Positions 3,408 to 39,361 of a stretch of DNA of 39,707 bases are shown here, one piece after another. Position numbers and translations under genes: made by a program. The DNA lies in the UHGV virus genome UHGV-0130034, one strand, 5' to 3'. The notes beneath the pieces were generated by a model. It searched no databases, was not told the DNA's origin, and was given only the letters and a program-made list of their open reading frames with translations. The first letter of the stretch is position 1. Every line of letters begins with the position of its first letter. The stretch comes from a virus.

Positions 3408-3475
3408 GTTGGTTTTTCTCCACGGATTTACTGACAACCGAAGCCCTGACTGTTCCCGCAGTTGGGGCTTCAACT

Positions 3476-29019: not shown

Positions 29020-29051
29020 GCCCTTTTTCAGGGCTGGGATGTGTAAGAGCT
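29020..29051 (-). promoter_or_regulatory. nutR (boxA AGCTCTTACAC, boxB GCCCTGAAAAAGGGC)
   Basis: Minus strand reads AGCTCTTACACATCCCAGCCCTGAAAAAGGGCATC, matching recalled lambda nutR; lies between cro and cII. Confidence 0.85.
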
Positions 29052-30171: not shown

Positions 30172-30200
30172 TTGACTCGATAAAGTACAAATTGTACTAT
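30172..30200 (+). promoter_or_regulatory. PL promoter (-35 TTGACT, 17-bp spacer, -10 TACTAT) overlapped by operator palindrome AGTACAAATTGTACT
   Basis: -35 at 30172-30177, -10 at 30195-30200; perfect 15-bp palindrome at 30184-30198; upstream of nutL and N. Confidence 0.7.
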
Positions 30201-30239: not shown

Positions 30240-30270
30240 CGCTCTTAAAAATTAAGCCCTGAAGAAGGGC
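30240..30270 (+). promoter_or_regulatory. nutL (boxA CGCTCTTA, boxB GCCCTGAAGAAGGGC)
   Basis: cgctcttaaaaattaagccctgaagaagggc matches recalled lambda nutL. Confidence 0.9.
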
Positions 30271-30380: not shown

Positions 30381-30707
30381 ATGGATGCACAAACACGCCG
30401 CCGCGAACGTCGCGCAGAGAAACAGGCTCAATGGAAAGCAGCAAATCCCCTGTTGGTTGGGGTAAGCGCAAAGCCAGTTAACCGCCCTATTCTCTCGCTG
30501 AATCGCAAACCGAAATCACGAGTAGAAAGCGCACTGAATCCGATAGACCTTACGGTACTGGCTGAATACCACGAACAGATTGAAAGCAACCTGCAGCGTA
30601 TTGAGCGCAAGAATCAGCGCACATGGTACAGCAAGCCACGCAGTGAAATGGGTGTGACTTGTGTTGGTCGCCAGAAAATGAAATTAGGCAGCAAACCACT
30701 TATTTGA
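30381..30707 (+). CDS. N: Antiterminator N (start at MDAQTRRRERR)
   Basis: MDAQTRRRERRAEKQAQWKAANPLLVGVSAKPVNRPILSLNRKPKSRVESALNPIDLTVLAEYH.QIESNLQRIERKNQRTWYSKP matches recalled lambda N. Confidence 0.95.
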   Translation: MDAQTRRRERRAEKQAQWKAANPLLVGVSAKPVNRPILSLNRKPKSRVESALNPIDLTVLAEYHEQIESNLQRIERKNQRTWYSKPRSEMGVTCVGRQKMKLGSKPLI

Positions 30708-31328: not shown

Positions 31329-31465
31329 CCATCAATCACCAGATGCTTCGTGCAGCACAAAACAAAGCAGTAATAGCCAGATTTATTGGTGATTCAAAAA
31401 TGTGGCTTGAAGCAAATAAAGCGATGAAATCAGCTATCAACCTTCCGTGGTATCGCAGGAAATGA
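31313..31465 (+). CDS. kil: Kil-like protein (50 aa)
   Basis: GGAGG RBS 5 nt upstream; AVIARFIGDSKMWLEANKAMKSAI resembles the recalled lambda Kil motif (IATFIGDEKMFREAV); overlaps cIII stop. Confidence 0.45.
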   Translation: MRNEIAINHQMLRAAQNKAVIARFIGDSKMWLEANKAMKSAINLPWYRRK

Positions 31466-31632
31466 GTTTTACAGATAACTGGTCAGACGAAGAATTCATT
31501 CGTCAGATGAAAGAATTAATCGGTAACGAAGGAGATATTCATGTCACTTGCAACCACAGTGAAGGAGAGCAAGTTACAGAGACGCATGTACACACAGCAG
31601 GCGTTAATGTATCGCCAGAAGGGAGATCGTGA
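31462..31632 (+). CDS. Possible small acidic protein (56 aa), ATGA-coupled to kil
   Basis: ATG overlaps the kil stop; overlaps the better-supported 31541-31711 ORF in another frame. Confidence 0.3.
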   Translation: MSFTDNWSDEEFIRQMKELIGNEGDIHVTCNHSEGEQVTETHVHTAGVNVSPEGRS

Positions 31633-31711
31633 AGGTGTTCGCGTATTTTTAAATGCGGCAAAGACTGAAGTATTAAATCAGCGTTATTTCCTTGGGCCAT
31701 GTCCATTCTGA
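31541..31711 (+). CDS. Arf-like small protein (56 aa) directly upstream of erf
   Basis: Strong SD GAAGGAG 6 nt upstream; position corresponds to P22 arf. Confidence 0.5.
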   Translation: MSLATTVKESKLQRRMYTQQALMYRQKGDREGVRVFLNAAKTEVLNQRYFLGPCPF

Positions 31712-31721
31712 GAACAAACAT

Positions 31722-32327
31722 ATGAGCAAAGAATTTTACGCAAGACTGGCAGCTATTCAGGAGAATCTGAACGCGCCAAAGAATCAGTACAACTCATTCG
31801 GCAAATATAAATACAGAAGCTGCGAAGACATTCTTGAAGGCGTTAAGCCGTTACTGAATGGTCTGTTTTTATCAATCAGCGATGAAGTTGTGTTGATTGG
31901 TGATCGGTATTACGTGAAAGCCACGGCAACTATTACCGATGGCGAAAACAGTCATACGGCAACCGCTCTTGCACGAGAGGAAGAAAGCAAGAAAGGAATG
32001 GATTCTGCACAAGTTACGGGAGCTACAAGCTCTTATGCACGCAAATATTGCCTCAATGGTTTGTTCGGCATTGATGATGCGAAAGATGCAGATACAGACG
32101 AGCATAAACATCAGCAGAACGCAGCAGCAAAGCAGTCAAAACCATCACCTACACCTGAACAGGTTCTAAAAGCATTCACTGACGCAGCATTGCAGAAAAA
32201 CACCGTGGAAGAGCTTAAACAGGCGTTCGCCAAAGCGTGGAAGATGCTCGAAGGCACACCGGAGCAGCACAAAGCGCAGGACGTTTACAACATCAGACGA
32301 GACGAATTAGAAGGAGCGGCTGCTTAA
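31722..32327 (+). CDS. erf: Erf single-strand annealing recombinase (start at MSKEFYARL)
   Basis: MSKEFYARLA.IQE.LNAPKNQYNSFGKYKYRSCEDILEGVKPLL.GLFLSISDE.VLIGDRYYVKATATITDGENSH matches recalled P22 Erf. Confidence 0.9.
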   Translation: MSKEFYARLAAIQENLNAPKNQYNSFGKYKYRSCEDILEGVKPLLNGLFLSISDEVVLIGDRYYVKATATITDGENSHTATALAREEESKKGMDSAQVTGATSSYARKYCLNGLFGIDDAKDADTDEHKHQQNAAAKQSKPSPTPEQVLKAFTDAALQKNTVEELKQAFAKAWKMLEGTPEQHKAQDVYNIRRDELEGAAA

Positions 32328-32710
32328 TGGCACATTCGATTACTGTAAGACTAAACAAGCCCGCAAGAGAGTTTCAGGCCGGGGAAAATATCGGATTCAA
32401 CATCCGTGCTGGCGTTCAGTATTACGATCGCCAGACAAAAAAGAAAGAATGGACAAACTACAGCGCCGTTGTATTTGCCAAGCAGGGATCGCAAGCGGAT
32501 TACTACCGTAGTGTTCTTGTTGAAGGTGGCATTGTGGAAATTACCGGAGAAAACATCAGGGTTGATGTTTATCAGGGGCAAAATGGTCAATCAATCACTC
32601 TTGAATTACTGAATGCAAAGATTGGATTTGCAACTTCAGGAAACAGCCAACAGCAACAAAGTAGCAATCATCAAAATCATCCTGAATACGACGATTCAAT
32701 TCCCTTCTAA
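32327..32710 (+). CDS. SSB-like protein with C-terminal acidic tail ending DDSIPF
   Basis: 127 aa; Gln-rich linker then EYDDSIPF, resembling the bacterial SSB C-terminal tip (DDDIPF); GGAG RBS; TAATG coupling with erf. Confidence 0.65.
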   Translation: MAHSITVRLNKPAREFQAGENIGFNIRAGVQYYDRQTKKKEWTNYSAVVFAKQGSQADYYRSVLVEGGIVEITGENIRVDVYQGQNGQSITLELLNAKIGFATSGNSQQQQSSNHQNHPEYDDSIPF

Positions 32711-32733: not shown

Positions 32734-33030
32734 ATGCCTGCGCCTCTGTATGGTGCGGATGACCCGCGCCGCTGTTCCGGCAATTCCGTATCGGAGGTGC
32801 TGGATAAATTCAGAAAAAACTACGACCTGATAATGTCTCTACCGCAGGAAACGAAAGAGGAAAAGGAATTTCGCCACTGTATATGGCTTGCAGAGAAAGA
32901 AGAACGCGAGCGAATTTACCAGACATCAATCCGACCATTCCGCAAAGCCACATATACCCACTTCCCTGAATATATCGACCCGCGCCTGCGTAATTACCGC
33001 TCACGCTATGGCGCTATCAGTAATGACTGA
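32734..33030 (+). CDS. Hypothetical protein (98 aa) in the abc-gene position (possible anti-RecBCD Abc-like)
   Basis: Position after erf/ssb as P22 abc genes; sequence not confidently recognised. Confidence 0.5.
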   Translation: MPAPLYGADDPRRCSGNSVSEVLDKFRKNYDLIMSLPQETKEEKEFRHCIWLAEKEERERIYQTSIRPFRKATYTHFPEYIDPRLRNYRSRYGAISND

Positions 33031-33040
33031 GGAATTAACA

Positions 33041-33331
33041 ATGAAAACAATGAAGCTAAACATCGACCTCGGAAAATACGTTATTACCGGAACCAAACAC
33101 GATCTGATTCTTAGCGAAAGAGGAATTATCAAAGAAGGCGAGAATGCAGGGAAAGAAACACTAAGCCGTATCGGTTATTACAGCAAGTTTGAGCATCTGG
33201 TTAAAGAATTATGCAACCGTGAAATCCTGTTATCTCAGGCGCGGACGCTACAGGATATTCAGCAGCATATCGAAGCTTTAGGTATGTCACTTAGCATGGC
33301 TATTGACCAGTTCGTGGAGAGTAAATCATGA
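33041..33331 (+). CDS. Hypothetical protein (96 aa)
   Basis: GAGG RBS; start at [13 protein letters not shown]; coupled operon. Confidence 0.6.
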
Positions 33332-33492
33332 GAGGACTTGCATACAATCCCGGCATTCTTCCGGCAGAAATGATTATTCGCCAACGCGTAAAGCCAATGC
33401 CATCGAGAGAGGAATTACTTAAGAGAAATAGTTTCGGTTCTGTTAATGACAACAAATATCTGAATGCGATGTTGCGGAGTGGGAAGAAATGA
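33328..33492 (+). CDS. Hypothetical small protein (54 aa; absent from the ORF track)
   Basis: ATGA overlap with upstream and downstream genes; GGAGAG upstream; encodes [54 protein letters not shown]. Confidence 0.45.
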
Positions 33493-34070
33493 AACAAATG
33501 ACACTAATTGAGATGGATGGATTTCTGAAAGGTAAATGCATCCCCCGAGATTTAAAGGTTAACGAAACAAACGCTGAATATCTGGTGCGTAAGTTCGGTG
33601 AACTTGAATCAAAACTGGAAACGGCGTTGCGGGAGTGCCGTTCTGCTGGAATCACGATTGATAACCTTGAGGCCAAGTACGCGGCACTGGCAGCGGAGAA
33701 TGCGGGGCTGAAGTCTGGCGCTATGGACGAAATCAAGGTTATCAACCGTGGAGGGCAGGCATATTGCGTAAAAGATGGAGTGCAAGTTAATCCCATGTAT
33801 GCAAGAGGGTGGAATGACTATCGCGCAAAGTCTCTGCAATCAGACACCCCCGCCACCGACGCTTTCCTGGCTGAAGTACGAGCGCAGGGGGTGGATGCTG
33901 CTATAGAAGCTGCAAAAAATCTGGTGGCCCAAGAATATGAGTATAAGGATTTCAAAGCGGCGCAGAGTGATTGCTGTATGCGCCCTGGTTCAGACCTGGT
34001 AGGGAAGGTTGAAATGACTGAGTGGTTAGTTGACTTTGCTGCCCAGCTTCGCAAAGGAGGCAACCAGTGA
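33489..34070 (+). CDS. Hypothetical protein (193 aa)
   Basis: Coupled ORF; predicted coiled-coil region. Confidence 0.6.
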
Positions 34071-34711
34071 GTAACCGTTTTTACATGATGTGCTTGCGTG
34101 AAACTGTGGGTAATAACGCTTCATTCCATTGCCATAACGGCAATGGTTACAGTTCTGATATCGATCGCGCTCATGTTTACACGCTGGAAGAAGCCCAAAA
34201 AGCCTGGAATTGTGGTCGAGATATCGATCAGCCTGTTTGCGCTGATAGCGTGGATGCAATGGCTGTGTGGCACGTTGATTGCCAGTACATCCCTACAGAA
34301 AGCCTGATTGAGTCAGATTGCACTGCGTATGTGGCCTACAAAAAAGGTAGCTGGAACGGCAACGATGTTTACTGGCTTCAACACGGTGGATTGCCAACAG
34401 ATGACTTCAGTAAAGCAACCATCTTTAGCGTCGCCAACAAAAACGAACCAGGAATAGTTTGGTTGCCATTTTCCATTGCTGATGCAGCAAAGCGGCGGAC
34501 GTTCAATATCAATAATTTCAACCGCAGAACAATGGTTCAGATCGCAGGTTTAGTCATGCCTGACTGGTTGAAAAAGCAAAACAGAAGAAAGAAGTCACGA
34601 AGCGGGAAGGTGCGCTGGAATTGTCCGCATTGCGGAAAAATCACCTGGCAGTATAACCCATATGATTTTGAAGGCTGTTGTGATTACAACTGTGAGGGAT
34701 GGCGAGAATGA
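34067..34711 (+). CDS. Hypothetical protein with C-terminal Cys-rich zinc-finger-like motif (214 aa)
   Basis: CPHCG...CCDYNC cluster at the C-terminus; coupled ORF. Confidence 0.6.
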   Translation: MSNRFYMMCLRETVGNNASFHCHNGNGYSSDIDRAHVYTLEEAQKAWNCGRDIDQPVCADSVDAMAVWHVDCQYIPTESLIESDCTAYVAYKKGSWNGNDVYWLQHGGLPTDDFSKATIFSVANKNEPGIVWLPFSIADAAKRRTFNINNFNRRTMVQIAGLVMPDWLKKQNRRKKSRSGKVRWNCPHCGKITWQYNPYDFEGCCDYNCEGWRE

Positions 34712-35655
34712 AAATTGACTATCAGGCACTGCGTGAAAAGGCAGAGAAAGCAACGTGTGGTGTGTGGTCGCTCGAATATGGAGAGGGCCGATTTGATGGT
34801 GATGATGCACTAATTCATCGCGAGGCTGCTGGATATATTCCCATTTGCAGAATTGAAGGAGCGCATCCAGAAAGCGGTTTCGATGAAGATTTCCAAATGG
34901 AACAGCAGGCCAATGCTGAATTCATCGCCGCAGCCAGTCCAGCTACTGTGCTGGCACTGCTGGATGAACGGGAAAGAAACCAGCAATACATCAAACGCCG
35001 CGACCAGGAGAACGAGGAGATTGCGCTAACGGTAGGGAAGCTGAGAGTTGAGCTTGAGGAAGCAAAATCAAAACTCAACGAGCAGCGTGAGTATTACGAA
35101 GGTGTTATCTCGGATGGAAGTAAGTGCATAGCAGAACTGGAAAAACAATGCGCTGAATGGGAGCGAAAAGCATTAAGCAACTTTGAAGAGTGTGCTGCGA
35201 TGGCTGAACGCATCGAAGAGTTGCAGACAAAATCTGCACCAGATTCGTTTGGCATCATCGGTGAAAATATTCGAACACAGGATAATCGAATAACGTCAGA
35301 CCCTATGTTTTGTGTGTATCAAAAGCGCGAAATCGTTGTTGATGCTGATTATGACTATGACCGGATTGTCTGGGTTGATGAAGATGGTAATGAAGCCAAT
35401 AAACGCCAAAGTCGTCGTCTCGAACTACTTCACGAAAACTTTCGAGAGCCACCAGAAAAATGGCGGCGCGTTGCTGTGAAAGATATTGATGAATTCGTTA
35501 CCTGCTGTTTCACCGAACAGGGTTGTAAAGACTACCTGGCAGCCAATGGTCACAATCTTCGCTTGCCATTTATATATGTAAAAAGCGGTTTCAGGAACGC
35601 TGAATATATCGGCATCAGAAACTGGCTTGCTGGCATTCGCATCAAAGGAGAGTGA
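34699..35655 (+). CDS. Hypothetical protein with central coiled coil (about 316 aa; start 34699 or 34708)
   Basis: ATGA overlap with upstream gene at 34708; heptad-rich region LEEAKSKLNEQREYYEG. Confidence 0.6.
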   Translation: MARMKIDYQALREKAEKATCGVWSLEYGEGRFDGDDALIHREAAGYIPICRIEGAHPESGFDEDFQMEQQANAEFIAAASPATVLALLDERERNQQYIKRRDQENEEIALTVGKLRVELEEAKSKLNEQREYYEGVISDGSKCIAELEKQCAEWERKALSNFEECAAMAERIEELQTKSAPDSFGIIGENIRTQDNRITSDPMFCVYQKREIVVDADYDYDRIVWVDEDGNEANKRQSRRLELLHENFREPPEKWRRVAVKDIDEFVTCCFTEQGCKDYLAANGHNLRLPFIYVKSGFRNAEYIGIRNWLAGIRIKGE

Positions 35656-35656
35656 T

Positions 35657-35866
35657 ATGGCTATCGCTGCAAGTTACACCATGCATCTCTATTGTGACTG
35701 CCTCCAGTGTACAGATGGCAAATATAAGTCGCCAGACTTCGGTGAGTATATCGGTACGTCATGGACTGGCTGTGCAAAAGAGGCCCGTAAAGACGGGTGG
35801 CGAATAAGTAAAGACAAAACGCGTGCTTTTGCGCCCGGGCATAAAGTTTTGAGGGTTAACAAATGA
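35657..35866 (+). CDS. Hypothetical Cys-rich small protein (69 aa)
   Basis: AAAGGAG RBS; CDCLQC motif. Confidence 0.55.
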   Translation: MAIAASYTMHLYCDCLQCTDGKYKSPDFGEYIGTSWTGCAKEARKDGWRISKDKTRAFAPGHKVLRVNK

Positions 35867-37212
35867 CCACTATTACCAGAGAACAAGCTCTGAAAATTAT
35901 TGAGGCAGCCGATGAGGTTATTAGTGCGCTTGCCGGAACTAACGAGGATGTTCACCCTGGTAGCGATAACATGCTACGCCTGTGGGATGACCTGAATGAC
36001 CGTTACGCTCCCCCGGAAGTAGTGCGTGAGCTGGCACGAATTGCTCTGGCATCGCTGGAAGCAAAACCAATAGGTGCATTCCACATTGCAGAACAGCAAG
36101 TTGACGGCACAAGTGACTACCTCAAGGATGGAGAATGGCCTATTGATAATGGAATTATTGAGGTCTACGCCGCTCCCCCCGTTCCAGTAGTACCTGAAGA
36201 AAAACCAATGCCTAACGCTCTAAGCATGCTTGAAAGAGAGATCACACAACTGATTGGTGATGCGCAGGAAGCCACTGTTACTGGCTATGAGTTAATCGCT
36301 GAAGCTTGGCGTTTGATGGATGGACAAGACCCTAAAACCAGCGATTGGCATAGCAAGGCTTCGAAGTATTTAAATTCCAATATTGTAGAAAAAGTTTATG
36401 ATGACCGTATTGAGGCTGTTAAGGCTGTTTTGCGTAGACTGGCTGGCAACTCTCCGGTAATTCCAGGTGAGGTGCTGTCAGCAATTATGAAGGTTGCCAG
36501 GGTTCGTGCCGATTTCGATGATTTTGACGGTGACAGGCGAGGTATCGGTGATTGTCTGGATGAGGCTGAGCAAGAGCTTATCGTTACCATTAACAAATAT
36601 GCCAGTCAGTTGGCAGCAGAACCGATAGCGACTAATGACGTTCGAGAGCAGCAGACAGCCGTTCCGCCAGTTCCGGAAATACAGGCTGATGTCGCGCAAG
36701 CAATTGAAAATCTCAAGCAGAAGTTAGTGGAATGCAATCGCTATAACTACTGCGCAGATGCAGTTAAGGGCGTAGAGGATGCCTGCCACGCTGCCATGCT
36801 TCAGGGTATCCAACCTGTAAGCCAAACTTACAACTTGCCAGAATTAATCGAAGGGATGGAAGTTTCCATTGATGTAAGCACTTGTGATGCTGATTTAGGT
36901 AATCGCTATTTCGGCACCGTCACCGAGGCGTTAGAACTTGATACAGCCAAGAATGGTTACATCCTCCTGGTTCAGGACGCAGAGCCAAACTTCGATGTAA
37001 ATAGCAACTCTCCGGTAACTCCGGATGGTTGGATAAGCTGTAGTGAGCGAATGCCAAACGAAGAAGATGTTTTGGTTTATTGTTCAGACACAAAAGAGCA
37101 GATGGTAGGGTTTCACAAAGGTAAAGGGTTATTTCAATTCTTTTACATGAACGGTGTTGAGGGGGTATGTGAGCCGTCACACTGGATGCCGCTACCAGAG
37201 CCTCCACTTTGA
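35863..37212 (+). CDS. Hypothetical protein with DUF551-like C-terminus (449 aa)
   Basis: C-terminal ...HWMPLPEPP, as recalled for DUF551 proteins of lambdoid early regions. Confidence 0.6.
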   Translation: MTTITREQALKIIEAADEVISALAGTNEDVHPGSDNMLRLWDDLNDRYAPPEVVRELARIALASLEAKPIGAFHIAEQQVDGTSDYLKDGEWPIDNGIIEVYAAPPVPVVPEEKPMPNALSMLEREITQLIGDAQEATVTGYELIAEAWRLMDGQDPKTSDWHSKASKYLNSNIVEKVYDDRIEAVKAVLRRLAGNSPVIPGEVLSAIMKVARVRADFDDFDGDRRGIGDCLDEAEQELIVTINKYASQLAAEPIATNDVREQQTAVPPVPEIQADVAQAIENLKQKLVECNRYNYCADAVKGVEDACHAAMLQGIQPVSQTYNLPELIEGMEVSIDVSTCDADLGNRYFGTVTEALELDTAKNGYILLVQDAEPNFDVNSNSPVTPDGWISCSERMPNEEDVLVYCSDTKEQMVGFHKGKGLFQFFYMNGVEGVCEPSHWMPLPEPPL

Positions 37213-37308
37213 AAGCGAAGCTTATACATATCTTTTACATCAGCAATCTATTGTTAATCTCCAATCAATGTTACGTTGTCATCTCACTCATGCTTTGGAG
37301 GTAGTGAT

Positions 37309-37488
37309 ATGTCTTGTCCAAAATGCGGTTCTGGAAATATTGCAAAAGAAAAAACAATGCGTGGATGGTCTGGAGATTATGTGTGCTGCGATTGCGGATA
37401 CAACGACTCTAAAGACGCATTTGGTGAGCGTGGTAAAAACGAGTTTGTTAAAATTAATAAAGAAAGCGAAGGCAACGAAAAAAGCTAA
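37309..37488 (+). CDS. Small zinc-ribbon protein (59 aa)
   Basis: GGAGG RBS; CPKCG...CCDCG motif. Confidence 0.55.
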   Translation: MSCPKCGSGNIAKEKTMRGWSGDYVCCDCGYNDSKDAFGERGKNEFVKINKESEGNEKS

Positions 37489-37552
37489 TTTATTTATTCA
37501 TATATGAAAACAATGTAACCAATATTCGAATTGAAGAACTGAAAGAACACCA

Positions 37553-37576
37553 AACCGCCTGATGGCGGTTTTTTAT
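37553..37576 (+). terminator. Rho-independent terminator-like hairpin with T-run
   Basis: aaccgcc-tgat-ggcggtt followed by tttttt. Confidence 0.6.
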
Positions 37577-37588
37577 TGGAGACAAGAA

Positions 37589-37933
37589 ATGTCAGATTTG
37601 GCTATGAAGATTTTGAAATGGCAATCGACTGGCGATGTCGGCATCAGTAGCGCAACTCTTGCCTCAATCGCATGTGGACTGAAAAAGAATATCTATGGTC
37701 ATCACTTCGGCGCTCCACATGACGCAGCCGATTTCCGACGATGCGTTGCACTTGTTGAGCAGATTCCAGAAATCAGAGATTCATTCGACAAGGTTGCAAA
37801 GCGCGTTCCGGCATTCAAAGGCATCCTCAACGAATGGGATTCTCTCGCTGCTCTGTTGAACTCTGAAATGAAGATACACGGAAACAAAGCACCAGAGACT
37901 TACAGAAGAATCAGCGAGCTACGCAAGGACTAA
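37589..37933 (+). CDS. Hypothetical protein (114 aa)
   Basis: GGAGA RBS; start at MSDLAMKILKW. Confidence 0.55.
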   Translation: MSDLAMKILKWQSTGDVGISSATLASIACGLKKNIYGHHFGAPHDAADFRRCVALVEQIPEIRDSFDKVAKRVPAFKGILNEWDSLAALLNSEMKIHGNKAPETYRRISELRKD

Positions 37934-37934
37934 C

Positions 37935-37995
37935 GCCTCACACTCGATGAGGCCTGTACATATCTGATAGAGCCGCTATATGGCGGTTTCTTTTT
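37935..37995 (+). terminator. Tandem hairpins with T-run (terminator region upstream of xis)
   Basis: gcctc-acactcgat-gaggc then ccgc-tatatg-gcgg followed by tttctttttg. Confidence 0.55.
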
Positions 37996-38010
37996 GCCTG
38001 GAGAATTAAG

Positions 38011-38202
38011 ATGACCGATACCAGCCTGATTCCTGAGAAAGAAGTGATGAACAAGCTCGGTGTTTCATCACGTCAGACAATCTGGAACTATACCAAACGG
38101 CACGGATTTCCGAAGCCAGTCAGAACCCACCCCAAATCATACCTTCGTGAAGCTGTTGAAGGGTGGATTCTTAACGGTGGCGTTAATCAGAAATGCTCCT
38201 GA
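38011..38202 (+). CDS. xis: Excisionase / AlpA-family DNA-binding protein
   Basis: 63 aa; HTH-like LGVSSRQTIWNYTKRHGFPKPV typical of AlpA/Xis; GGAGA RBS; adjacent to int. Confidence 0.7.
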   Translation: MTDTSLIPEKEVMNKLGVSSRQTIWNYTKRHGFPKPVRTHPKSYLREAVEGWILNGGVNQKCS

Positions 38203-39361
38203 TGTGCCAGAACAATTTATCAGCGTGAAGCTCATACGCTTTGCGCTGAGCCTCTATCCAGTCGTGTTTATTGTACACGGACATTATCCCGCCAAGTTCA
38301 TGACCGAGCATTCTCTCAGTAACATGAGGCTCGACATTCATCTCGGACAGACGTGTAACAAGCGTTCTTCTGAAATCATGTGTTCGCCAGTAACCTATAT
38401 CCATCCCTCCCCTTATTCTATTTACGAATCGGTTGGCTGCAGCGATGCTGATCGGTTTGTTTATGTCTTCTCCAGGGAAAAGAACATCATTGTACGTTGT
38501 CATGGCCTTATCGAGGAAAGGCTTAATTTGTTCGAAGATTGGACGGCGGATAACATTACCCATCTTGCTATGCTCTTTCGGTACGGTCCATACGTTTTCC
38601 AGCAGGTCAAATTCTGTCTTTTTTGCCAGCCTAAGCTCTGAGAGCCTCGCCCCCCACAGCATAAGCATCTGATGAAGTAGCTTATTTGACGTAGACGCAC
38701 GGCTTCTTTCAATAGCAAGCCAAATCTTAGCCAGTTCGTGATACGACAGTACCCGATCCCCTACCTCAGCGCGGGAGCCGAAGTCCCTTGGTTGGATGCT
38801 CATAATTGCGCAACTATCTATCAACTGACGCCGCATGCACCAACTAATTGCTGATCTTAGTTGACTTAGCACCTGCCTTGCTCGGCGTGGATTATCTTTT
38901 TCTTCTTCGGTAAGCAGGTCAACCCATTGCTTAACCGTGATAGAAGATGCCGGACGATTAGGGAAGGCGTCATGCATGCGCTTCATAACCGTTGATCGGT
39001 AAAGTGCCTGGGTCTTTTCTCTGAGAGTTGTAGAGACGTAGTTGTCGAACCAGTAGTCGAGACACTGGGCAACCGTCATGGAGTTCTCCACCTTCTCTTC
39101 AAAATAAGTGCGTGGATCCGTTCCTGAGAAATAGAGCTTTCGTAAGTCAGCAGTGATCTGTCTGGCATCCTTCAAAGACAGGGATGGGTATCGACCAAGC
39201 CCAAGTCGATTAGGCTTGCCATGCCAGCGATAGCGGTACTGGAACTGGATGACCCCCTTCGGTGAAATTCGTACGCTGAGGCCATCGGCATCAGCCACTT
39301 CTTGTGGGCCCGAATATGGTTTACCATAAATAGTACGCAGTTTTGTGTCGCTTATAGCCAT
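38183..39361 (-). CDS. int: Tyrosine integrase (P4-like family; start at MAISDTKLRT)
   Basis: N-terminal arm-binding-like domain, HDFRRT (H-x-x-R) motif and C-terminal Tyr (MSVYNKHDW); adjacent to attR. Confidence 0.9.
   Translation of the reverse strand: MAISDTKLRTIYGKPYSGPQEVADADGLSVRISPKGVIQFQYRYRWHGKPNRLGLGRYPSLSLKDARQITADLRKLYFSGTDPRTYFEEKVENSMTVAQCLDYWFDNYVSTTLREKTQALYRSTVMKRMHDAFPNRPASSITVKQWVDLLTEEEKDNPRRARQVLSQLRSAISWCMRRQLIDSCAIMSIQPRDFGSRAEVGDRVLSYHELAKIWLAIERSRASTSNKLLHQMLMLWGARLSELRLAKKTEFDLLENVWTVPKEHSKMGNVIRRPIFEQIKPFLDKAMTTYNDVLFPGEDINKPISIAAANRFVNRIRGGMDIGYWRTHDFRRTLVTRLSEMNVEPHVTERMLGHELGGIMSVYNKHDWIEAQRKAYELHADKLFWHIRSISD

Follow-up and report, generated by a model that had tools for sequence, protein, structure and literature searches.

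We show here that nine open reading frames (ORFs A to I) on the plus strand of the virus genome UHGV-0130034, at positions 33041-37933, are the distal part of an N/nutL-antiterminated pL operon of the lambda type, and that the locus is the ea or exo-xis accessory region known from lambdoid and P22-like phages, here in a new mosaic combination. The whole stretch of DNA that was analysed (39,707 nucleotides (nt), hereafter the window) corresponds to one complete temperate phage, or prophage, roughly 39 kb in size. The ea/exo-xis region is among the least understood parts of the best-studied temperate phages. A preliminary description had treated the cluster as a separate operon; instead, it continues a pL operon that begins at about position 30172. 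We regard it as probable that this distal segment from a temperate coliphage, the counterpart of the P22 ea region and of the exo-xis region of lambda and Stx phages, supplies delayed-early effectors that act on the host, with ORF C as a putative inhibitor of OLD-type nucleases and ORF E as a putative pro-lysogenic protein. Beyond the Oad2-type gene (ORF C) and ORF D, the locus is typical of an accessory region that is already known.

Gene structure and pL operon context

The cluster and its internal elements are arranged as follows (lengths in amino acids, aa).

33041-33331, plus strand: ORF A, 96 aa, DUF5405 and phrog_154, equivalent to HK446 gp29 and Sf6 gene 24
33328-33492, plus strand: ORF B, 54 aa, DUF2737 (Pfam, 4.9e-31), equivalent to P22 Orf56, HK620 HkaI and HK446 gp28
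33489-34070, plus strand: ORF C, 193 aa, coiled-coil protein of the EaE/Oad2 family by homology to HK446 gp27, directly after the DUF2737 gene
34067-34711, plus strand: ORF D, 214 aa, GTG start, phrog_2457, equivalent to P7 Upf87.6
34708-35655, plus strand: ORF E, 315 aa, Ea22/EaD protein with an Ead_Ea22 N-terminal region, a predicted coiled coil and a P27-type ('V3') C-terminal domain
35657-35866, plus strand: ORF F, 69 aa, Cys-rich, phrog_926 (3.9e-36)
35863-37212, plus strand: ORF G, 449 aa, EaA-like modular protein of three modules with Pro-rich linkers and a C-terminal DUF551
37213-37308, plus strand: non-coding spacer of 96 nt, 5' of eaG, almost 100% identical in P22 and HK620
37309-37488, plus strand: ORF H, 59 aa, EaG zinc ribbon, 100% identical to HK620 HkaD and 93% to P22 EaG
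37552-37579, plus strand: intrinsic-terminator-like hairpin (hairpin itself 37552-37571, AAACCGCC-TGAT-GGCGGTTT, with a T-run), directly 5' of the ribosome-binding site of ORF I
37589-37933, plus strand: ORF I, 114 aa, phrog_1229 (3.3e-51, aligned from ATG 37589)
37970-37998, plus strand: second terminator-like hairpin (hairpin itself 37970-37989), 5' of xis

Same-strand ORFs of at least 50 aa cover 100% of positions 33041-37212, compared with a mean of 35 ± 10% and a maximum of 65% in the 300 first-order Markov simulations that served as chance model for the tiling, and the longest ORF measures 449 aa against a simulated maximum of 192 aa. Because coverage and longest ORF both far exceed the simulations, the run of ORFs is not a product of chance; protein-level homologues exist for each of the nine. 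Reading the junctions from the sequence, we find ORF A separated from abc2 by 10 nt, ATGA overlaps between A and B (33328), B and C (33489), D and E (34708) and F and G (35863), a GTGA overlap between C and D (34067), and a TGAtATG junction with a 1-nt gap between E and F (35653-35659). A GGAG/GAGG-like Shine-Dalgarno sequence lies 5-10 nt 5' of every start codon, and the GTG start of D and the ATG start of E at 34708 are kept in homologues at other loci. Owing to these overlaps, the 1-nt gap and the Shine-Dalgarno sequence at every start, the seven genes A-G (33041-37212) are tightly coupled translationally. The gaps after ORF G are wider (96 nt from G to H, 100 nt from H to I and 77 nt from I to xis), and H and I are not translationally coupled, since 96- and 100-nt spacers precede them, the second of which holds a terminator-like hairpin. 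The overlapping stop and start codons that the preliminary description had pointed out (ATGA at 33328, 33489 and 34708, and the TGAtATG junction) are therefore present, while its translationally coupled operon of nine genes shrinks to the seven genes A-G. The description had likewise listed two zinc-ribbon or Cys-rich small proteins, a coiled-coil protein and a DUF551-type protein, which we recognise in the Cys-rich F and the zinc-ribbon protein H, in C and E (both coiled-coil), and in G, respectively.

Upstream and downstream of the cluster, the following elements place it in the early-left arm.

30172-30200, plus strand: pL-like promoter, TTGACT-17-TACTAT, found by a consensus scan, just downstream of a CI-like repressor gene
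30240-30270, plus strand: nutL of the lambda type, boxA CGCTCTTA and boxB GCCCTGAAGAAGGGC (exact; 0 matches expected by chance)
30381-30707, plus strand: N-like gene (Pfam N36)
31462-31632, plus strand: gp33-like gene, 56 aa, 95% identical to HK446 gp33
31722-32327, plus strand: erf, single-stranded DNA-annealing protein (Pfam ERF), 99.5% identical to HK446 Erf
32327-32710, plus strand: gp31-like gene of the recombination module, 127 aa, 98% identical to HK446 gp31
32734-33030, plus strand: abc2, anti-RecBCD protein (Pfam Anti-RecBCD_p2, 4.4e-63; phrog_656), 98% identical to HK446
38011-38202, plus strand: xis, AlpA-type excisionase by weak Pfam Phage_AlpA/HTH_17 matches and by position, the last gene on the plus strand
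38183-39361, minus strand: tyrosine integrase (Arm-DNA-bind_3 and Phage_integrase, called on identical contigs)

After the N-like gene, the order is cIII, kil, gp33, erf, gp31 and abc2. The boxB of nutR (29020-29034, minus strand) is also of the exact lambda type, and since this holds for nutR and nutL alike, an antitermination system of the lambda-N type is used. On the left, the accessory region is anchored by the conserved abc2, which ends at 33030; on the right, xis begins at 38011, and every gene between the two lies on the plus strand, with pL, nutL and N upstream. The signature families of the region, DUF2737/Orf56, EaE, Ead/Ea22, DUF551/EaA and EaG, are all present. The pL-distal, lambdoid placement proposed in the preliminary description is borne out by this position directly downstream of abc2 and between abc2 and xis. 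Apart from one 9/12 match inside G, a consensus scan for sigma-70-like promoters on the plus strand of 33041-38010 returned none, and no Rfam family was found in the cluster interval.

After infection or induction, polymerase starting at pL would be modified by N at nutL and would pass internal terminators, such that the nine genes appear as delayed-early products. Delayed-early expression, presumably from pL only, is suggested by pL, nutL and N, by the shared strand and coupling of the genes, and by the absence of any convincing promoter within the cluster. A-G would then be made by translational coupling directly after gp33-erf-gp31-abc2, and expression of H and I would need read-through of the terminator-like hairpins.

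Mosaic composition and turnover of gene content

Among the closest known arrangements are those of P22 and HK620. The P22 ea region reads abc2-orf56-eaE-orf45-eaF-eaD-eaI-eaA-eaG-eaC, followed by xis, and it occupies, as does hkaI-hkaD of HK620, the same position between abc2 and xis and the same strand as the cluster described here. The order of families is likewise shared (DUF2737, EaE-like, Ea22/EaD, a small protein, DUF551/EaA, EaG), and EaG is 93-100% identical to ORF H; in HK620 the matching layout runs from hkaJ to hkaD. In contrast, A (DUF5405), D, F and I are present only in the phage studied here, from which eaF, orf45 and eaC are missing, and the P22 counterparts share only some modules with its proteins: 39% identity over 75 residues between ORF C and EaE, 73% over 44 residues for ORF E, and 41% within DUF551 for ORF G. 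The integrase here is of another type than those of P22 and HK620, and its gene lies on the opposite strand. The early-left arm of HK446 from gp33 to gp27 has the same layout, with gene identities of 95-99.5% for gp33 to gp28. Phage P27 (vB_EcoS_P27, carrier of 'Ea22 V3') encodes an Ea22 of the same length as ORF E (315 aa), from which residues 1-65 of ORF E differ as an N-terminal variant; a DUF551 protein is encoded downstream, as here, and P27 gp03 is 93% identical to the first 56 residues of ORF I. Homologues of lambda orf60a, orf61, orf63, orf73 and ea8.5 are missing from the cluster, and the recombination module of the exo-xis regions of lambda and Stx phages is exo/bet/gam instead of erf/abc2.

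A block of D, an Ea22-like gene and a G-like gene is common to this phage and the phage-plasmids P1, P7 and SJ46. In P7 and P1 it is represented by Upf87.6-Upf88.3-Upf89.0-Upf89.5, with these three genes in the same order, and 87.4-90.8 kb of P7 align with 34067-37212 at about 95% nucleotide identity in parts. P1 and P7 are of an unrelated phage type in which a C1-controlled operator (Op(hea)), not pL and N, lies upstream, and the C-terminal domain of the Ea22-like protein and the small gene differ from those of the cluster. The shared block indicates that these are accessory cassettes exchanged between unrelated temperate phage types.

The gene content next to abc2 turns over rapidly. We collected 80 viral contigs with an abc2 98-100% identical to that of this phage, 32 of which have at least 4.5 kb downstream of abc2 and were used for presence counts. 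ORF B is a near-constant member (31-32 of the 32 loci), and some Ea22 or DUF551 module occurs in 25, while A was present in 10, I in 9, H in 5, F in 3 and D in 2 of the 32. Full-length E or G at 80% identity or more was seen in only one of these loci, the contig identical to the window. Behind the DUF2737 gene, 57 distinct proteins were found in 75 loci; 35 of them have the MKQM...VRKF head in common, beyond which their sequences diverge completely. Thousands of phage records and complete E. coli genomes share pieces of the interval, yet none of them covers more than 52% of it. An arms race acting on a modular accessory region should leave just such variable content beside a near-identical abc2; counter-defence is in keeping with this pattern but is not proved by it.

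The Oad2-type ORF C, the Ea22-type ORF E and the widespread ORF D

The preliminary description held that none of the proteins matches a characterised one; this does not apply to C, a member of the EaE/Oad2 family, or to E, an Ea22 protein. According to a preprint of July 2026, Gp33 of HK75 and HK446 triggers the P2 OLD abortive-infection nuclease, and HK446 gp27, named Oad2, rescues OLD toxicity and abolishes OLD defence (bioRxiv 10.64898/2026.07.10.737580). The same work describes Oad2 as a relative of P22 EaE, in some cases fused to EaD/Ea22, that binds OLD and prevents the OLD tetramer from cleaving tRNA (bioRxiv 10.64898/2026.07.10.737580). ORF C matches Oad2 with a BLASTP E value of 6e-57 and 52% identity overall, and its residues 1-77 are about 96% identical to those of Oad2. 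The motif QLRKGGNQ and one 14-residue motif of Oad2 are kept in ORF C and are invariant in a six-sequence alignment, whereas two internal segments (about residues 78-118 and 133-185) are variable and unrelated in sequence to Oad2, and ORF C is 18 residues longer. Both genes occupy the same locus position, after a near-identical gp33-erf-gp31-abc2-gp29-gp28 block. ORF C is further 62% identical to the protein called EaE in phage 720R6 and 53% to HK620 HkaH; it has no Pfam domain, and a relaxed scan (E <= 1) gave nothing usable.

By homology and genomic context, it is close to an even call, if slightly short of one, that ORF C neutralises an OLD-type nuclease that would otherwise sense the action of the phage's own Gp33 and Abc2 on RecBCD. 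In such a mechanism, ORF C would bind an OLD-type ABC-ATPase/TOPRIM abortive-infection nuclease and hold it inactive; the nuclease would otherwise be triggered by the RecBCD-manipulating proteins Gp33 and Abc2 of the phage itself, and the two variable segments of ORF C might set which nuclease allele is recognised. An Oad2-type gene two genes downstream of abc2 and after the OLD trigger gp33 fits a trigger and a matching antidote in one operon. The MKQM...VRKF head shared by 35 different proteins is found in products of 123-301 aa encoded downstream of the DUF2737 gene, among them fusions to the Ea22 coiled coil, to the P27-type Ea22 C-terminal domain (V3) and to DUF551 tails, and it looks like a constant module or a recombination hotspot. 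EaE/Oad2 proteins might be cassettes in which a constant N-terminal head is combined with interchangeable recognition segments. Should the alleles that follow the head correspond to different nucleases of the OLD family, the series would amount to a naturally occurring collection of inhibitor specificities. Rather unlikely, in our estimation, is the joint proposal that ORF D represents a new-fold family for counter-defence or host takeover and that EaE/Oad2 is a cassette system of which the allele in this phage targets an OLD-family or related ABC-ATPase nuclease other than P2 Old.

ORF E matches Pfam Ead_Ea22 (PF13935) with an E value of 1.1e-36 (126.9 bits against a cutoff of 27). It is 81% identical to P27 Ea22 over the full length and 97-98% identical from residue 66 on, and its probable architecture of a coiled coil followed by a separate C-terminal domain is taken from this identity. 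The C-terminal domain is 98% identical in 85 records of Stx/HK022-type phages, and a relaxed Pfam scan (E <= 1) gave nothing usable for it. Ea22 of lambda, Phi24B and P27 is described as a coiled-coil protein that is made early, forms tetramers and promotes lysogeny and the survival of the host (PMC7093339, PMC10834534). By analogy, ORF E might act as such a tetrameric coiled-coil protein and bias the outcome towards lysogeny and host survival.

ORF D is 97% identical to P7 Upf87.6. We found 141 close homologues of constant length in Enterobacterales, Yersinia, Acinetobacter and others, and a profile search returned 911 cluster representatives (at 50% identity); the family occurs in P22-like phages, P1/P7-type phage-plasmids, IME10 and phages of Vibrio, Pseudomonas and Burkholderia. 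ORF D has no Pfam domain, a relaxed scan (E <= 1) gave nothing usable for it, and none was detected in four longer homologues that were checked for domain fusions. The AlphaFold2 (AF2) model is confident (predicted local distance difference test score (pLDDT) 92.4, predicted template modelling score 0.76) and combines a mixed alpha/beta region with a basic helix (residues 166-177) and a C-terminal Cys4 zinc ribbon (CxxC...C...C). In a 41-sequence alignment, C186, C189 and C204 of the ribbon are invariant and C209 is present in at least 90% of the sequences. Further invariant residues of ORF D are D71, Q73, N99 and D100. A fold search with the model against solved structures gave no match. The modelled basic helix and zinc ribbon indicate that ORF D probably binds nucleic acid. 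Constant length, wide distribution, a confident model and the lack of a structural neighbour make ORF D a clean target for structural and functional work.

The P7 record labels Upf87.6 a putative tyrosine phosphatase, and residues 20-32 of ORF D (FHCHNGNGYSSDI) indeed fit a loose PROSITE-style pattern of protein tyrosine phosphatases. However, family members have Arg or Gly at the position of Cys22, a column that is not conserved in the 41-sequence alignment, an Arg six residues after Cys22 and with it the CX5R motif are missing, no Pfam phosphatase matches even at E = 1, and the model matched no phosphatase fold. A tyrosine phosphatase is therefore a highly improbable identity for ORF D, and we rejected it because the pattern cysteine is not conserved. 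Distant homologues of ORF D (36-45% identical) in the Vibrio phages 252E42.2 and douglas 12A4 are encoded in early operons of hypothetical genes and adjoin orphan DNA methyltransferases, a weak association with anti-restriction.

Functional readings and the remaining genes

The products of the cluster would be dispensable, modular and fast-shuffling, with host processes as targets and not phage replication or assembly; A, B, D, F, G, H and I would be accessory effectors in addition to C and E. In lambda, the pL genes beyond N score as non-essential (PMC10695390). Several points weigh against a segment of host-directed, partly counter-defence effectors. ORF C is only 52% identical to Oad2, so inhibition of a given OLD protein cannot be assumed from its sequence. 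This identity is about that of the HK75 homologue, which is 54% identical to Oad2 and reported as inactive against P2 OLD (bioRxiv 10.64898/2026.07.10.737580), and because that homologue fails to inhibit P2 OLD, membership in the EaE/Oad2 family does not predict the target allele. The findings on Oad2 come from a single preprint. The counter-defence idea of the preliminary description receives direct support for ORF C (the position, head and motifs of Oad2), but for seven of the nine genes (A, B, D, F, G, H and I) location is the sole argument for an anti-defence role. Published exo-xis phenotypes concern lysogenisation and induction, and hence lysis-lysogeny, not defence. Internal promoters are possible and may lie, for example, in the conserved 96-nt spacer before eaG. 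Finally, the AF2 model of the ORF E C-terminal domain is poor (pLDDT 55.8, shallow alignment); this alignment held the best 120 of 881 matches, all at least 75% identical, and the domain could not be modelled from such close homologues.

These lysogeny phenotypes lead to a different emphasis, in which the cluster mainly tunes lysis-lysogeny and host physiology (replication, cell cycle, stress response) and not counter-immunity: Ea22 would favour lysogeny, and other products would shift the timing of induction or host survival, as in the exo-xis regions of lambda and Phi24B. The close identity of ORF E to P27 Ea22 is in line with this, as are the lower host survival and altered lysogen frequency upon ea22 deletion (PMC7093339), the impaired lysogenisation caused by a plasmid-borne exo-xis region (PMC3824215), and the DUF551 protein YfdS, one of a set of prophage genes whose overexpression inhibits DnaA-dependent initiation (PMC4776307). 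Developmental tuning, however, leaves the extreme diversity of alleles and content beside near-identical flanks unexplained, Oad2, the only relative from the region whose biochemistry is defined, acts as an inhibitor of immunity, and the lambda genes orf60a to ea8.5 named above have no homologues here. We judge developmental tuning as the main role to be a serious possibility that falls somewhat on the doubtful side; it and counter-defence are not mutually exclusive. Much further down the scale, and quite improbable, stands the idea that the genes are lysogen-protecting prophage cargo, such as superinfection exclusion or defence systems. In Salmonella prophages the same region can carry GmrSD-type (DUF262) defence genes beside Ead_Ea22 and DUF551 (PMC12373910, supplement), and ORF I is flanked by terminator-like hairpins, as morons often are. 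Yet PADLOC-DB 2.0 profiles gave no matches to the nine ORFs except for a spurious coiled-coil one (E = 0.0065), and the hairpin before I abuts the ribosome-binding site and leaves no room for a promoter. Since the genes lie on the pL strand and show no convincing promoter of their own, their repression in the lysogen is to be expected. Distal pL effectors expressed early and directed at the host are the reading that we prefer.

Restriction alleviation was considered for ORF H. EaG might be a Lar/RalR-type restriction-alleviation factor or a small DNase toxin, given that RalR of the Rac prophage lies at the equivalent position between recT and xis, that Pfam Lar_restr_allev (PF14354) matches ORF H with E = 8.7e-5, and that a BLASTP alignment with K-12 RalR shows 30% identity over 54 residues (E = 5e-4 for a single comparison). 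The Pfam score of 23.1 bits is, however, under the curated cutoff of 28.6, the match consists essentially of two CxxC knuckles, archaeal zinc-ribbon families score about equally, and the C-terminal WNKR motif of RalR is missing from EaG in the pairwise alignment with the K-12 protein. We consider this function unlikely and rejected membership in the Lar/RalR family because of the sub-threshold score and the missing motif. In NCBIfam, ORF H has sub-threshold zinc-ribbon matches only. The zf-dskA_traR profile (TraR/DksA, the type of lambda Orf73) matched neither F nor H at E <= 0.01, and F had no match at E <= 1 either. The 96-nt spacer is kept together with eaG as one module although the flanking DUF551 genes differ; no promoter or terminator is predicted in it, and a so far unrecognised regulatory element and a recombination joint are both conceivable.

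Among the other genes, ORF A is 97% identical to HK446 gp29 and scores just above threshold for Pfam DUF5405 (25.1 bits, cutoff 21.6). For its PHROG label, 'replication initiation protein', we found no support. ORF B is 98% identical to HK446 gp28 and 75% to P22 Orf56. ORF F is 88% identical to P27 gp09, and no relatives were found in P22, HK620, lambda or Rac even at E = 5. In ORF G, DUF551 (PF04448) covers residues 389-448 (2.1e-18; 67.4 bits against a cutoff of 22), and each of the three modules has a separate PHROG match. The last third of the protein is 66% identical to HK620 HkaE, and the first 338 residues resemble P7 Upf89.5 (49% over 345 aa). Relaxed Pfam scans (E <= 1) gave nothing usable for F, I and the N-terminal part of G, searches of PDB sequences with A, C, D, E, F, G, H and I gave nothing significant, and the supplements of the accessory-gene screen of Silas et al. 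(PMC12373910) do not contain the sequences of B, D and H. ORF I is 96% identical to a hypothetical protein of phage vB_EcoP-720R6, and its phrog_1229 relatives stem largely from Escherichia and Cronobacter. In databases, many of the proteins related to ORF I have fragments of Kil, Erf, a MazZ-type dATP/dGTP pyrophosphohydrolase or Ea22 fused to them, which argues for frequent deletions that fuse distant early-left genes in E. coli prophages.

Some observations concern the flanks. The sole Rfam match in the window is the sar antisense RNA (3408-3475, plus strand; RF00262, 95.6 bits), which marks a P22-type immI (ant/arc/mnt); together with the identities to HK446 it indicates that a P22-like late and immI arm was joined to an HK446/HK97-like early-left arm. 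The integrase gene lies on the strand opposite to pL and is convergent with xis, with an overlap of 20 nt, whereas int and xis are co-directional in lambda, P22 and HK620. This xis occurs in only one of the 32 abc2-anchored loci with long downstream sequence. An identical arrangement of the cluster and its flanks is present on metagenome and IMG-VR contigs of 37-40 kb. A second ORF of 56 aa (31541-31711) overlaps the gp33 ORF in another frame 5' of erf; its product is 100% conserved in HK446, where it is unannotated, and gene callers on identical contigs choose the gp33 ORF, this ORF or both.

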